Shown piece by piece: positions 8,842-21,150 of a DNA stretch of 64,000 nt. The stretch is taken from positions 72,783-136,782 of the forward strand of contig JACVQJ010000007.1 of NCBI GenBank assembly GCA_015661075.1, given 5' to 3'. The translations under genes and the position numbers were made by a program. Every line of letters starts with the position of its first letter. The first letter of the stretch is position 1. The notes beneath the pieces are model-generated. The model searched no databases. It was not told where the DNA came from and was given only the letters and a program-made list of their open reading frames with translations. Source of the stretch: Parachlamydiales bacterium. GTDB taxonomy: Bacteria > Chlamydiota > Chlamydiia > Chlamydiales > SM23-39.

Positions 8842-8850
8842 ATCAAAATT

Positions 8851-8886
8851 AAGGCTTCAGTTTTACGACTGAAGCCTTTTGTTTTT
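8851..8886 (+). terminator. rho-independent terminator of ssrA
   Basis: An 11-bp stem, aaggcttcagt / actgaagcctt, with a 6-nt loop, followed by ttttgttttt. Confidence 0.8.
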
Positions 8887-8905
8887 AGTGACATACAACG
8901 CAAAA

Positions 8906-9057
8906 TTGAAGATCTCCTCCTTGAAAGGAGGAGATTCTTTACGCAGCTTTTGGAGGCGGTGCGGCTAAAGCCGCATACCGCATCCCATAAAATAGCTTGT
9001 AAACTCCCGCTAGACCCACCCCTAAAGGGGAGGGACTCTAGGCAAGCAGTGCGTTCA
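8906..9057 (+). repeat. structured intergenic repeat, copy A (three hairpins)
   Basis: About 150 bp that is roughly 85% identical to 42446-42585. Hairpins: atctcctcctt-gaa-aggaggagat, gcggtgcggc-taaa-gccgcataccgc, and cccacccct-aaa-ggggaggg. Confidence 0.85.
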
Positions 9058-9183
9058 CACCAAGAAATTCCGCTACGCAATATTTGTGCACTAGACTGGA
9101 TGAAACTGCAGTAAAAACTATTTAGTTTTTCCACTTTTTCTGTTATGAAGATGAAGCTGAGAAGACCTCGAGGGCGATAAATA

Positions 9184-9951
9184 ATGCTAGAGTATTTGTT
9201 GATTGCAATTTCCACATTCTTTGCTTCGCTCATTTCTTTTTTCTCCGGATTTGGATTAGGAACGATTCTCATGCCTGTAATGGCCATATTTTTACCCTTA
9301 CCAATAGCAATTGGCCTTACAGCAATAATCCATTTGGTTCATAACGTTTTGAAAACAGGAATGCTTTGGAAAGCCATTGATTGGAACATCGCCCTCAGGT
9401 TTGGATCAACAGCCTTAGCAGCATCAATCCCAGGAGCCTTACTACTTAAAGGTCTATCTGAATTCACTCCTATAAAAGAATACTCCTTTCTAGGAATCAA
9501 AGGAGAAATTTTACTACTCCACATTTGTATAGGACTTCTCCTCATACTGTTTGCGACGATGGAAGCGTTTCCCCACAAAATATACAGAATCAAGAATTTG
9601 TTTTTCGGAGGAGCCATTAGCGGATTTTTTGGAGGATTATCTGGGAACCAGGGTGCACTTCGTAGCATTTTCTTAATCAATACCAATCTTGACACGAAAG
9701 CATTTATCGGAACAAACGCAGTAATCGCTGTGATAGTGGATATTATCCGCCTTGTTATCTATAGTTTGAGTTTCCAGCATTTGCTTACAAGAGCGCATGT
9801 GCCACTTTTAAGTATAGCTGTAATCGCTGGTATGAGTGGCGTCTTCTTAGGGATGGTTTTGCTAAAAAAAATCACTATTGAATTCATACAAAAAATCATC
9901 ATCGCCTTACTATATCTTCTCGGAACTCTTCTTGTACTTGGGATTATCTAA
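9184..9951 (+). CDS. TauE/SafE (TSUP, DUF81) family anion exporter
   Basis: 255-aa polytopic membrane protein. The N-terminus FFASLISFFSGFGLGTILMP and the Gly-rich repeat GGAISGFFGGLSGNQGAL are typical of the TSUP family. Confidence 0.75.
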   Translation: MLEYLLIAISTFFASLISFFSGFGLGTILMPVMAIFLPLPIAIGLTAIIHLVHNVLKTGMLWKAIDWNIALRFGSTALAASIPGALLLKGLSEFTPIKEYSFLGIKGEILLLHICIGLLLILFATMEAFPHKIYRIKNLFFGGAISGFFGGLSGNQGALRSIFLINTNLDTKAFIGTNAVIAVIVDIIRLVIYSLSFQHLLTRAHVPLLSIAVIAGMSGVFLGMVLLKKITIEFIQKIIIALLYLLGTLLVLGII

Positions 9952-10183
9952 GGGATCGTTCAAAAATAACTTTTACCGTTCTCGAGGGAAAAATCGATTT
10001 ATCTATTGAGAATTTTTCCTTGCAGAGAGAAACAAGACTCTCAGCTGCGGAAAAATTCTCAAAATCTAAACCGTTTTTCTCCTCGAAAACATTGACATCA
10101 TTTGACAATTTATTATTGTTTTGCCATAAAAAACACAGAGGCAAGAAGGATTCTTATGTCCGAACCTGTCATTTCTTTTAATT

Positions 10184-10339
10184 TTAGAAATAAAACTTAT
10201 CGAAGTGAAAGAATGGCGCCGGCTGAGCAGGGATCGTATCTTTTTTCACGACTTGCCCCTCACAGATAGCCGTGATCGAATAATGTTTTTTGTGCACATC
10301 TATTCCTAAAAAAACTTTTTTATCGGTATAGTTCCTCAT
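10184..10339 (-). pseudogene. IS110-family transposase, N-terminal stump (about 51 codons)
   Basis: MRNYTDKKVFLGIDVHKKHYSITAICEG matches the N-terminal DEDD/RuvC-like GIDV(S/H)KK motif of IS110 transposases, with GGAGG 6 nt upstream. The ORF stops after 51 aa, whereas full-length proteins are about 330-400 aa. Confidence 0.65.
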
Positions 10340-18594: not shown

Positions 18595-18623
18595 CACATT
18601 AACATACTGGGAGAATTTAAAAA

Positions 18624-19787
18624 ATGGCTGCGCATGTTTCAATTCCTCCGCCGAATCATAAAGAAACACAAGTATCAGATGCGGATTTCGTGAATAATCG
18701 CAAAGTAACACTAGCTGTAGTAGTCGGCACGGCTGCACTAGTATCTATTGTCGCCAGTTGCTTACTGTTTATTCCCGGCGCGCCTCTTGCTGCACTCGGC
18801 GCAATCATTTCGGGGACGATCGGATCTTTTCTAGGAATTAGCGAGCTTGCAGCCACATTTCTGATCACAGGAATCACTGCTCTGCCCCTCTCAATCATTG
18901 CAGTGATCGCGATAGCTAAACGAATATTTCAACCCACTTCTATAGAGATAGCCACTAATACAGATACGCCTCAAGCTGTAGTAAAGACTGCTACTATTGC
19001 CACTAATACAGACGACCCTGACACAGAAAGCCTTTGTTCCCGCTTGTCTTCTCCCTTAGCATCCCCCGCGTCTACTGTCGTTTCCTTTGATAACACCCAG
19101 CAAGCCGCTCCTAATCTTTCTCTTGATCCCAATGAGCCCCGAGTTACCGCTGAGCGCCAAACATTTTTAAATGAACATGCCTCAAATGAGCTAAAAAAGC
19201 TGTTTCTTTTTAATTATCAATATTTAGATACACATCTAGACCCACATGACGAAGCATTATTGAAAATGACAAAAGACTTTGACGAATTTTTATACAAACT
19301 GATGCCACCCAACATCGATAAACTGGAAAAGTCTGGGGAATATCGAACCCTAAAATTTAAGGCGACATATTCAGCCCCTCATGAAATGATCACTAGCATT
19401 CCTATTAAAATATTCGGGATCACCCTCACTACTATAAACATCAAAATCACGATGGCCCAAGAAATCTTAGCGAAAATAATTATTTTGGATGATTGTAAAT
19501 ACTCAATCATCTTTGAGGAACAACAACTCATGGGATCGCTCTCTTGTCCTCGGATTGGATGGCTTGCTACTTTTATCGGAGAGACCGAATCCCGTCTTAC
19601 TTCTCCCCATCAGTTAACGCAATTAATCATTGAACAGTTCCGTGATGGTCCTTGGCTCACCGCCCTTTTTAGTGAACCGACAGCTGGAGCCAATTCTTCT
19701 TCCACCGAACGTTCTTTTCTTGGCGCCAATCTTATGAAAATATTCAATACACCCCAAGGCGTCAACTGGACCAAAGTTACCTCCTAA
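18624..19787 (+). CDS. Inc-like membrane protein, paralog B
   Basis: 387 aa. It has the same hydrophobic block (CLLFIPGAPLAALGAIISGTIGSFLGISELAATFLITGITALPLSIIAVIAIAKRIF), a T/S/P linker and one C-terminal module (LYKLMPPNIDKLEKSGEYRTLKFKATYSAPHE...QLTQLII). Confidence 0.75.
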   Translation: MAAHVSIPPPNHKETQVSDADFVNNRKVTLAVVVGTAALVSIVASCLLFIPGAPLAALGAIISGTIGSFLGISELAATFLITGITALPLSIIAVIAIAKRIFQPTSIEIATNTDTPQAVVKTATIATNTDDPDTESLCSRLSSPLASPASTVVSFDNTQQAAPNLSLDPNEPRVTAERQTFLNEHASNELKKLFLFNYQYLDTHLDPHDEALLKMTKDFDEFLYKLMPPNIDKLEKSGEYRTLKFKATYSAPHEMITSIPIKIFGITLTTINIKITMAQEILAKIIILDDCKYSIIFEEQQLMGSLSCPRIGWLATFIGETESRLTSPHQLTQLIIEQFRDGPWLTALFSEPTAGANSSSTERSFLGANLMKIFNTPQGVNWTKVTS

Positions 19788-19947
19788 GTGCCCTAAAAAC
19801 GCGCCAATTCTGACATCAACAAACCGCACTCTATGTCCAATCAAAAGGACCTATTGGGCACACACCGCTCAAAAAAATCGAATGCTATACAAACAATTAT
19901 TAACTTTGCATTCCTTTTGTTTTTAAATACGCAAACATAATTAACCA

Positions 19948-19976
19948 TTGACATAAAGTACGCGCAGCAATATAAT
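19948..19976 (+). promoter_or_regulatory. consensus sigma70-type promoter for Inc-like gene C
   Basis: TTGACA (19948-19953), an exact 17-nt spacer, then TATAAT (19971-19976), 30 nt before the ATG at 20006. Confidence 0.55.
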
Positions 19977-20005
19977 TAAGCAACAAACAAACTATAGGTT
20001 TATTT

Positions 20006-21112
20006 ATGTCATCACCAACAAATTATATGAACGATATGTTCCCAACAACTACCTCAGAAAACAGAACTAACTCTTCTGAAACTTTGCCACCATATGGAAA
20101 GCTCGAAAACAAACGTACAGTAACAATAGCTGCAATCGCAGGCACGATTGCCCTCGTAGCTATTGCTGCCGGATGCTTACTTTTCATTCCGGGCGCACCT
20201 CTTGCAGCAATGGGCGCAATCATTGCAGGAAATGCCGGATCATGGCTTGGAATGGGCGAGCTCGCCGCCACTCTGCTAATCACTGGGACCGCCACCCTGC
20301 CCCCTTCAATCATTGCTGCTATCGCAATGGCCAAACGAAACTTACAACTAACATCTGTTTCTAAAGAGACTCGTTCTGAAGTCTATCAACGCACTTCTGA
20401 TCCTGAAGCATCCGTTCATCAAGGGCCTGATACAAACACCAGCCAGACACCGACCGAAGTAGACCAGGAAAAAGCCCACGAACAAATAGCTACAGAAATC
20501 GTAAAAGAAATTCTAGACACAGTTCTTTCAAATCAAGATAACACTTCTTTTGTTTCAGCAGCAGCTCAGTCCTCGCCAAATAAGACTGATCAGTCTGGCT
20601 CTGTCCCAGTTGTGCCTACCATATCGGAAAAACATAAAATTCTAAAAACTCATTTTTCCATCCATTCAGAAACATACCCTGAATTTTACGATCTTTTATT
20701 TAATAAACTATTTTACATTGAACAAATTTCTTCATTAGATTATTCCACCACAGAGAAGACTCTTCAATTTAGAGTAACCTTCAAAACTCCTGCCGAAGGA
20801 TCTATTCCAGAAACAAGGTCATACAATAATGTCAAGCTCCAAAGGCCACTACAACTCACAGGGACAATTGATTTTACGTCAGATGAAGAAACAACAATCA
20901 CATTAAACGAAAAAAGCCTGACCGGGTCGTATACAAATCTCGGATTTTTTGGAAAAACTCCAATGGCTCCCCAAACGCTAACAAAGTTGGTTATTAATCA
21001 TAGTGACAAATTAAGGGTCACTTGCCATACAACAGCTGGGGGTGCTCCTCTTACATCTCAATGGAATGAGGATGAATTGTTCCCAATACTCCAAAACCTC
21101 ACTTGGTATTGA
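20006..21112 (+). CDS. Inc-like membrane protein, paralog C
   Basis: 368 aa. It has the same hydrophobic block (CLLFIPGAPLAAMGAIIAGNAGSWLGMGELAATLLITGTATLPPSIIAAIAMAKRN), a linker and one C-terminal module (TLQFRVTFKTPAEG...LTGTIDFTSDEETTITLNE...QTLTKLVI). Confidence 0.75.
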   Translation: MSSPTNYMNDMFPTTTSENRTNSSETLPPYGKLENKRTVTIAAIAGTIALVAIAAGCLLFIPGAPLAAMGAIIAGNAGSWLGMGELAATLLITGTATLPPSIIAAIAMAKRNLQLTSVSKETRSEVYQRTSDPEASVHQGPDTNTSQTPTEVDQEKAHEQIATEIVKEILDTVLSNQDNTSFVSAAAQSSPNKTDQSGSVPVVPTISEKHKILKTHFSIHSETYPEFYDLLFNKLFYIEQISSLDYSTTEKTLQFRVTFKTPAEGSIPETRSYNNVKLQRPLQLTGTIDFTSDEETTITLNEKSLTGSYTNLGFFGKTPMAPQTLTKLVINHSDKLRVTCHTTAGGAPLTSQWNEDELFPILQNLTWY

Positions 21113-21117
21113 TAATA

Positions 21118-21150
21118 CGCCCCCAGCCTAAACCGGGGGCGTATTTTTAC
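21118..21150. terminator. bidirectional terminator between Inc-like gene C and phoH2
   Basis: The stem acgccccc / gggggcgt is followed by atttttac on the plus strand and A-rich sequence on the other side. The flanking genes are convergent. Confidence 0.65.

Follow-up and report, generated by a model that had tools for sequence, protein, structure and literature searches.

What kind of DNA lies between the transfer-messenger RNA (tmRNA) gene ssrA and phoH2, and how it came to be there, is the question raised by a 64,000-nucleotide stretch from the genome of a Parachlamydiales bacterium (GenBank assembly GCA_015661075.1, here G000; 2.01 Mb, 45 contigs, 48.5% GC), referred to below as the window (contig JACVQJ010000007.1; G000:C39:72783-136782). 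An earlier interpretation made from the letters alone (the sequence-only reading) had described a low-GC segment of approximately 12 kb beginning directly after ssrA, and had proposed that it is one old, decayed island inserted at the tmRNA gene. The AT-rich stretch of about 12 kb located 3' of the tmRNA gene is accessory DNA which splits a conserved chlamydial gene block. Its history is probably more layered than that of a single island: the interval between ssrA and phoH2 appears to be a hot spot for integrative elements that are moved by a large serine recombinase (LSR), in which positions 8843-12079 represent a dead cassette and the rest consists mostly of older cassettes.

The repeat-bounded unit next to ssrA

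The features at the left end of the segment are the following.

5230-8331, minus strand: ileS, the left anchor of the conserved block (Pfam tRNA-synt_1 and Anticodon_1)
8471-8842, plus strand: ssrA, the tmRNA gene, intact, the proposed integration target (ARAGORN; Rfam RF00023, 129.8 bits, model positions 1-374)
8828-8841, plus strand: attL copy of the 14-nt identity block TCTCTCCACCTCCA, from the last T of the T-loop through the discriminator base
8843-9150, plus strand: conserved left-end module of the cassette (8843-8905 and 9058-9150), including a terminator hairpin at 8851-8878
8906-9057, no strand assigned: one copy of a dispersed repeat of ~150 bp resembling a miniature inverted-repeat transposable element (MITE), which splits the left-end module (blastn against the whole genome)
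9184-9951, plus strand: TauE/SafE-family permease, cassette cargo (Pfam PF01925, 6.5e-23; single copy)
10184-10405, minus strand: stub of an IS110-family transposase, N-terminal ~70 aa, recognised by similarity to an intact paralogue on contig C14
10551-11354, minus strand: DUF4431 protein, cassette cargo (Pfam PF14485)
11736-12188, plus strand: RhuM-family gene, truncated after ~110 codons (homology stops at 12058-12065)
12059-12079, plus strand: attR, composed of GAATGCATCT and the 14-nt core, 21 nt in all, matching the type-A right end described below
12088-12115, plus strand: strong intrinsic terminator directly 3' of attR, with a 12-bp stem and a T-run

The 3'-terminal 14 nt of ssrA (TCTCTCCACCTCCA, 8828-8841) recur as an exact, same-strand copy at 12066-12079, 3.2 kb downstream. 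The sequence-only reading had stated that the ssrA 3' end is not directly repeated and had suggested a search for partial copies of 12 nt or longer; this search returns one copy, so that the statement was wrong. No further copy of TCTCTCCACCTCCA exists in the 2.0-Mb genome, and shuffled sequences (n=30) reach at most 11 nt. The identity block begins at the last base of the T-loop and its distal copy is placed exactly where the homology to RhuM ends. Each copy is followed by a terminator with a 12-bp stem (8851-8878 and 12088-12115), and these are two of the three 12-pair hairpins which top the plus-strand list for positions 8400-23000. The distal terminator probably once flanked ssrA, or an older cassette, and was displaced. 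Within 12084-12115, the region around it, the right-end word AAAGTTCTGAATG also has an inverted copy, CATTCAGAACTTT, and the core would have occupied the loop of a long inverted repeat before the deletion in RhuM described below. The repeat bounds only 3.2 kb (8843-12079) and not the full 12.3 kb. Only this part is both repeat-bounded and recent, the other 9 kb being older and heterogeneous, and the idea of one old 12-kb island is not supported.

Both ends of the unit resemble those of elements in other chlamydiae. The first 66 nt after ssrA are 97% identical to a module found at 28 sites in other chlamydial metagenome-assembled genomes (MAGs), where it comes after either ssrA or an att core. 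The alignment with this left-end module of ~150 nt resumes once the 152-bp repeat is removed, and the module is followed by varied cargo in other MAGs. It is taken to be carried by the cassettes because two copies sit within one array (G039, L088). The inserted MITE-like repeat has internal hairpins and ~70 or more copies in G000 (e.g. 42446-42585 of the window), and is multi-copy also in the same-genus comparison assembly G001, which is 82% complete.

Comparison with G001 dates the cargo. A block of 1018 nt spanning DUF4431 and RhuM, including the N-terminal part of the DUF4431 gene, is 93.7% identical between the two genomes, as opposed to 75.6% for ileS plus ssrA. Third codon positions are 0.87-0.95 identical in DUF4431 and RhuM (0.87 in DUF4431) versus 0.42-0.47, i.e. 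saturation, in core genes. Because its identity is far above that of core genes with saturated third positions, the DUF4431-RhuM module must have been acquired or exchanged long after the species split. In G001 the RhuM orthologue is of full length (359 aa, 367 bits) and the orthologous module terminates in the same site. Relative to it, G000 lacks ~755 nt; the deletion starts at RhuM codon ~110, stops 10 nt short of the core and has taken away two thirds of RhuM together with most of the right-end site. No convincing microhomology is seen at the deletion junction. It is proposed that the unit at 8843-12079 arrived in G000 after the split from its sister species and would then have lost these ~755 nt.

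The unit shows several signs of decay. It retains attL, the left-end module and attR, and its cargo amounts to TauE, DUF4431 and the stubs of RhuM and IS110, while genes for recombination or transfer are absent. Both stubs had been noted from the sequence and are borne out: only positions 1-39 of the 252 in the RhuM Pfam profile are matched, and the IS110 stub is 51% identical to the N-terminus of an intact transposase (C14:39696-40826, with matches to PF01548 and PF02371). Likewise, the earlier descriptions of the segment as decayed and as lacking an integrase are correct, in that no match to the tyrosine integrase family (PF00589) lies near ssrA and no LSR homologue is present anywhere in the G000 genome. 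The lack of a recombinase, the truncation of its site, the IS110 stub and the inserted MITE-like repeat are the grounds for regarding the cassette as dead. It is probably immobile in trans too, since its right-end site is cut to 10 nt and the genome is devoid of an LSR.

Elements at the tmRNA gene of other chlamydiae

Of 20 relatives, 12 have same-strand copies of the ssrA 3' end, 14-26 nt in length, at distances of 158 bp to 11 kb downstream of the gene. In G015, as many as 13 cores are packed into 16 kb, with none on the opposite strand. Sites downstream of ssrA are of three kinds, of which the commonest (type A) has a conserved end of ~45 nt, ..GAACTTTCTCCCACTGAAAAGTTCTGAATGCRTCT, followed by CTCCACCTCCA. 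This right end is composed of the hairpin GAACTTT/AAAGTTC, then GTTCTGAATGCRTCT and then the ssrA 3'-end copy; it often also contains the stop codon of the last cassette gene, e.g. that of RhuM in G001 or of a hydrolase in G022. The conserved motif directly upstream of the repeat reads GAATGCATCT in G000, where it starts at 12059 before the core, and in its full form elsewhere GTTCYGAANGCRTCT plus the core.

A 26-nt right-end motif was searched for with up to 2 mismatches in 400 genomes of the order besides G000, using the reversed motif as a control. The motif is present in 127 of these genomes, representing 94 of 216 genera, and the control in none. Its copies are mostly found in same-strand arrays downstream of ssrA. 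The truncated right end of G000 (GAATGCATCT+CTCCACCTCCA) fails to match, and the motif is absent from the ~1.1-Mb genomes of family f35. An exact match is found in at least 120 public stretches, nearly all from chlamydial MAGs, and the MAGs include Parachlamydiales, Simkaniaceae, Waddliaceae, Rhabdochlamydiaceae and Anoxychlamydiales. A phage origin was considered and discarded, the motif being unmatched in a viral contig collection. When the open reading frames (ORFs) around 80 motif loci are clustered, the most widespread are RhuM, ileS, AbiEi/AbiEii pairs and a serine recombinase. The cargo of the arrays comprises toxin-antitoxin genes, abortive-infection genes (AbiE pairs), RhuM, Fic, hydrolases and detoxification genes.

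The recombinase is a 496-aa LSR with Resolvase, Recombinase and Zn_ribbon_recom domains (Pfam). In a complete element (G405), ssrA is followed by the LSR gene on the opposite strand, a 172-aa ORF, a primase/AAA_25 protein, cargo and, at a distance of 7.8 kb from ssrA, the right-end motif. Over its last 33 nt this LSR gene is the antisense of the ssrA 3' end (..WRWRESNSRP*). Among 17 full-length LSR copies examined, seven end inside ssrA (those of G405 and six more genomes) and three inside tRNA-Tyr. LSR homologues are found in 123 of the 400 genomes, many of them as C-terminal stubs beside cores, and at least 12 genomes have an LSR and the motif on one contig, 0.7-11 kb apart and with the LSR on the opposite strand. 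The best NCBIfam matches of the LSR are XisF (88 bits, cut-off 375) and CcrB (88 bits, cut-off 900), which indicates the same superfamily and architecture and no equivalog; no relative is found in the PDB at E<=0.001. A sister clade of the LSR, ~72% identical, ends in tRNA-Tyr next to tRNA-Thr (L203, L207 and L209, on G392:C3, G271:C46 and G314:C89), which suggests a switch of target gene within one LSR family.

A classical tyrosine integrase, the agent which the earlier island proposal was understood to imply, is not supported; the proposed agent is an LSR family whose gene overlaps ssrA in relatives. A search for PF00589 in 41 genomes returned only Xer-type and tRNA-Met-linked members, none of them near ssrA, and tblastn with the integrases of G000 against all array loci gave no match. 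G000 itself has tyrosine integrase genes beside tRNA-Met, at C16:117768-119076 and C3:40637-41937, one intact (383 aa) and one broken. These loci are classical tRNA-linked islands unrelated to the ssrA system.

Taken from the anatomy of these elements, the LSR is proposed to recombine within the last ~14 nt of the tmRNA gene. A complete element would carry the LSR gene at its left end, antisense to ssrA and with its stop codon inside it, as seen in relatives. Because the right end finishes in a copy of the ssrA 3' end, integration would regenerate ssrA and leave a direct repeat at the far end of the element. Repeated integration combined with loss of the recombinase would then give rise to tandem arrays of small cassettes without recombinases.

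The ssrA-phoH2 interval and its older contents

Relatives of G000 reveal what the locus looks like without the segment. The sequence-only reading had named phoH, the SH3 gene, ssrA and ileS as conserved neighbours split by the segment and had suggested a comparison with related Chlamydiae, which bears out the arrangement. The small genome G094 (family f35, 1.1 Mb) has ileS (minus), ssrA (plus), 670 bp, PhoH2 (minus), the 237-aa protein p237 (plus) and SH3 (plus), which is the gene order and strandedness of the window minus the segment, and it shows the empty site at ssrA. The adjacency of ileS and ssrA is kept in nearly all relatives examined, and the PhoH2-SH3 block is inverted in G059 and G138. 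In other families of the order the gap between ssrA and PhoH2 measures 11.3 kb (G012), 10.2 kb (G021) and 2.8 kb (G035) and is filled with differing DNA in each, and in G386 the array runs towards PhoH2; in all four genomes PhoH2-p237-SH3 lies distal to the variable gap. Since other families fill the same gap with different DNA of varied size, it appears to be an old and variable hot spot, and the placement of the segment at a tmRNA integration hot spot is supported. Beyond RhuM, even G001 carries content different from that of G000. The remaining features of the window up to the right anchor are as follows.

12202-12890, plus strand: DUF5674 gene and its overlapping 110-aa partner, p110 (Pfam PF18924)
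12943-13404, minus strand: YqeY-like protein (Pfam PF09424)
13441-13887, minus strand: secreted-looking protein of 148 aa, no family (no Pfam match)
13941-16469, minus strand: CrcB, GT90 glycosyltransferase and radical-SAM/SPASM (rSAM) genes in series (Pfam)
16658-21112, plus strand: three tandem Inc-like paralogues of 595, 387 and 368 aa (no Pfam match)
18443-18488, no strand assigned: possible relic of the phoH2 3' end (36/46 identity to 21230-21275)
21147-24975: right anchor, consisting of PhoH2 (PIN and PhoH domains, minus strand), p237 (plus strand) and the SH3 protein (plus strand) (Pfam)

This inventory agrees with the cargo previously listed from the sequence (TauE, DUF4431, a DUF5674-like pair, CrcB, GT90, a radical-SAM enzyme and three Inc-like genes), with Pfam matches for TauE, DUF4431, DUF5674, CrcB, GT90 and the radical-SAM enzyme, none for the Inc-like genes, and one for YqeY as well. 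The permease at the left end has no homologue in the other arrays examined.

Many of the genes between 12080 and 21146 recur in or near ssrA arrays elsewhere. A homologue of rSAM (65-69% aa identity) forms a single-gene cassette between two att cores in L142. In L145, as in G000, the start of the DUF5674-p110 pair is ~100 nt past the last core, and a p110 homologue (80% aa) ends 94 nt before a type-A right-end site in L190. The CrcB homologue at L169, in an unrelated MAG, lies 2.7 kb from a core and is 79.5% identical, compared with 69.7% for the orthologue of the same genus, and in L120 YqeY (80%) has a core at a distance of 4.6 kb. Downstream of ssrA are found DUF5674-p110-YqeY in G006, YqeY in G012 and G030 and, in G004, a homologue of the 148-aa protein with 36% identity. 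Relative to their G001 orthologues, CrcB and rSAM have a third-position identity of 0.44-0.47, and both have low GC at third codon positions (GC3) in the two genomes; because this divergence is core-like and saturated, the two genes must be old. GT90 (14322-15515), located between these two, has no homologue in G001 or in any array examined and may be a separate, later insertion. No degenerate ssrA core with up to 2 mismatches is left in 12080-21150, where a single match with 3 mismatches is what chance would give.

The three Inc-like genes are 34-38% identical to one another and share an N-terminal hydrophobic domain, and no homologue was found in the phoH2 flank of G001 or in any array examined. 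The sequence at 18443-18488, between the first and second of these genes, matches 21230-21275 at 36 of 46 positions. Their mutual paralogy together with this possible phoH2 relic points to tandem duplication next to phoH2, and the triplet is a local tandem family. Taken together, 12080-21146 is probably a fossil array of older, fixed cassettes to which local growth has been added. According to this reconstruction most of it would consist of older cassettes that have become fixed and have lost their repeats to erosion (the DUF5674 pair, YqeY, CrcB and rSAM), alongside a GT90 gene of unclear source and the duplicated Inc-like family beside phoH2.

The composition of the segment is in line with the sequence-only reading in one of the two measures it had put forward. 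In 1-kb windows GC drops clearly to 0.39-0.446 from ~8.8 to 21.1 kb, from 0.50-0.54 on either side; the segment (8843-21146) has 42.3% GC, versus 51.3% in the left and 50.3% in the right flank. GC3 is 0.33-0.51 in segment genes versus 0.55-0.65 in flanking genes. By contrast, the GC-corrected tetranucleotide deviation is only moderate (top 5-30%) and is not relied on as an independent sign of foreign DNA. Windows of 12.3 kb that are equally AT-rich make up 1.5% of the genome, every one of them within C4:1-34.8 kb. This block (C4:1-34800, 38-41% GC) is the only one to match the AT-richness of the segment; it contains a tyrosine-recombinase gene at C4:4998-5474 and may be a large island or a plasmid-derived contig. 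The low GC of the segment would seem to reflect an AT-richer gene pool common to chlamydiae and to be retained in its old members. Because it persists in these old members, low GC alone cannot date the insertion here.

Three other explanations of the segment were weighed. The least credible, to the point of being negligible, is that the repeat at 12066 is a matter of chance and the segment the product of a rearrangement without site-specific integration. The repeat is short, and a 14-mer match of some part of the tmRNA gene in a 2-Mb genome has a BLAST E-value of ~2. However, the part that matches here is the final 14 nt of the gene, and the match lies in the same orientation 3.2 kb downstream and is the sole further copy genome-wide; 10 more nt match the conserved right end of the element, the orthologous G001 module finishes in the same site, and the motif found in 127 of 400 other genomes has a control count of 0. 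Very unlikely, too, is that the whole 12.3 kb represent one old island which entered ssrA in a single event through a classical tyrosine integrase that was lost afterwards. Such an island would account for the uniformly low GC from ssrA to phoH2 and for the presence of mobile-element stubs without an integrase, but the sole distal repeat lies 3.2 kb from ssrA with none at ~21.1 kb, and the ages of the genes differ, as judged from third-position identities of 0.87-0.95 (DUF4431, RhuM) versus 0.44-0.47 (CrcB, rSAM). Moreover the content past RhuM varies even within the genus, and in place of a tyrosine integrase, absent from the vicinity of ssrA in 41 genomes, a serine recombinase abuts the gene in 7 genomes. 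Somewhat less improbable, though still unlikely, is that only 8843-12079 is foreign and that 12080-21146 is a vertically inherited, fast-evolving region whose low GC stems from weak selection on poorly expressed accessory genes. This would agree with the low GC3 of CrcB and rSAM in both G000 and G001 despite saturated synonymous sites, with a genome background in which one quarter of the 1-kb windows have <=45% GC and ~40 low-GC runs of >=4 kb occur, with the synteny of DUF5674-p110-YqeY in G006 and G012, with the local tandem origin of the Inc-like genes and with the absence of residual cores. It is at odds with the gap of only 670 bp in G094, which means that everything between ssrA and phoH2 was added at some time, with the att sites that flank rSAM and the DUF5674 partner in other chlamydiae, and with a CrcB that is closer to the copy near the array of an unrelated MAG (79.5%) than to its same-genus orthologue (69.7%).

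The preferred explanation, a hot spot for LSR-moved elements holding one dead cassette and mostly older ones behind it, has weak points of its own. An LSR gene is missing from G000, there is a single distal repeat, and the recombination of the LSR at ssrA sites is deduced from the anatomy of the elements. As no cores are left in 12080-21150, the cassette origin of this part rests on homology elsewhere and not on boundaries of its own. The position of DUF5674-p110-YqeY, kept in G006 and G012, which belong to other genera, and the core-like divergence of CrcB and rSAM fit vertical inheritance equally well, and the Inc-like genes and GT90 are without counterpart in any array examined. Finally, the left-end module of ~150 nt could partly be the ancestral flank of ssrA instead of cassette DNA. 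With the hot-spot explanation, an unexplained AT-rich block becomes a dated and layered record, in which a recent dead cassette lies beside ssrA and older, fixed cargo behind it.

A broader interpretation can be offered tentatively, at a little less than even confidence, namely that environmental chlamydiae possess a phylum-wide platform for gene exchange at the tmRNA gene. Such a platform would be integron-like while built from a serine recombinase and an RNA gene, and would still be moving genes between species of these obligately intracellular bacteria. Its mini-cassettes would have standard ends, with a left module of ~150 nt and a right hairpin of ~45 nt plus the ssrA 3' end, and may also be mobilised by the LSR in trans; the G000 unit would be one dead cassette of this kind.

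Known systems and wider arrays

The closest analogue of the chlamydial elements appears to be the ssrA-linked genomic islands (ssrA-GIs) of Dehalococcoides, which are associated with the serine recombinase DsiB (McMurdie et al. 2011, PMC3146451). Both are tandem units bounded by an ssrA repeat, of ~20 nt in Dehalococcoides (PMC3146451), with a conserved motif just upstream of each repeat that cannot be aligned to ssrA and a crossover in or beside the T-loop. Both have an LSR of ~500-540 aa, described as CcrB-like in Dehalococcoides, on the reverse strand adjoining attL, whose chlamydial counterpart is present in relatives and not in G000, and it is by anatomy and description that the chlamydial LSR is likened to DsiB. 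The resemblance extends to units without a recombinase, which are taken for cis-mobilisable elements that accumulated by accretion, to a syntenic and fixed accessory region past the last repeat, to low GC and to broken synteny. Unlike Dehalococcoides, the chlamydial hosts are obligately intracellular and belong to another phylum. The module of G405 consists of the LSR, the 172-aa ORF and primase/AAA_25 and has no homologues of DsiA, RecF-like, ParB or Mom proteins. In addition, the reading frame of the chlamydial LSR enters ssrA, that of the sister clade ending in tRNA-Tyr, and many chlamydial cassettes are tiny (0.6-3 kb, 1-3 genes) with a common left module of ~150 nt and a right hairpin of ~45 nt.

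Classical islands in tRNA and tmRNA genes, which use tyrosine integrases, also insert in the 3' part of ssrA, regenerate the gene, leave a displaced 3' fragment at the far end and form tandem arrays (Williams 2002/2003; Islander database, PMC4383910). The chlamydial elements differ from them in their serine-family recombinase and in having no ssrA-linked tyrosine integrase among the 41 genomes searched. The tycheposons of Prochlorococcus (Hackl et al.) reportedly leave cargo-only remnants in genomic islands and use tyrosine recombinases of another family with different ends. The likeness would extend to small genomes that are otherwise poor in mobile elements, to tRNA and tmRNA genes as hot spots and to arrays of cargo flanked by partial tDNA, many of them recombinase-less. 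Integrons consist of the tyrosine integrase IntI, an attI site, cassettes bounded by attC sites and a platform promoter. The likeness to them is only functional, in that small tandem cassettes, each with a hairpin-containing end, lie downstream of one fixed platform; an integron was rejected on the grounds that IntI, attI, attC and the platform promoter are missing, the platform being an RNA gene and the recombinase of the serine type.

No paper on ssrA-linked islands or on this recombinase in Chlamydiae was found in the open-access literature. Few mobile elements are known in this group. A serine-recombinase family that targets ssrA in about one third of the genomes sampled from the order would account for a portion of the accessory genes in environmental chlamydiae, and for the exchange of such genes within hosts that are shared. 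Conservation of the target sequence extends over the order, the small-genome family included, which makes the recombinase and its site a candidate tool for site-specific integration. The parallel with the Dehalococcoides ssrA islands suggests a recurrent solution in streamlined genomes.

Several minor observations concern arrays elsewhere. Tandem units of ~216 nt, with 5' GGAGGTGAGCAAGGCAACA and 3' ..GAGGGMTTCTCTCCACCTCCA, mimic both ends of the tmRNA; there are six copies in G015, where they are located at 16215-17080 and 3196-3411 of L037 (G015:C5), and they also occur ~160 nt after ssrA in L031 (G001). They were considered as a known RNA, for which Rfam gave only terminator-like noise in both genomes. 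Another array, now eroded, may be represented in G000 by the low-GC stretch C38:1-13500, with paralogues of RhuM and DUF4431 and, at C38:5323, a right-end-like word AAAAGTTCTGAATGCGTC ahead of a degenerate core CAGCCGCCCCCA and a terminator. In G410, one contig of a pair (C19/C9; L052, L053) terminates in the initial 52 nt of a tmRNA gene, with five att cores on the same strand ahead of it, and on the other contig an array begins at a complete ssrA; the pair could mean either that ssrA is duplicated or that the assembly forks at the array.

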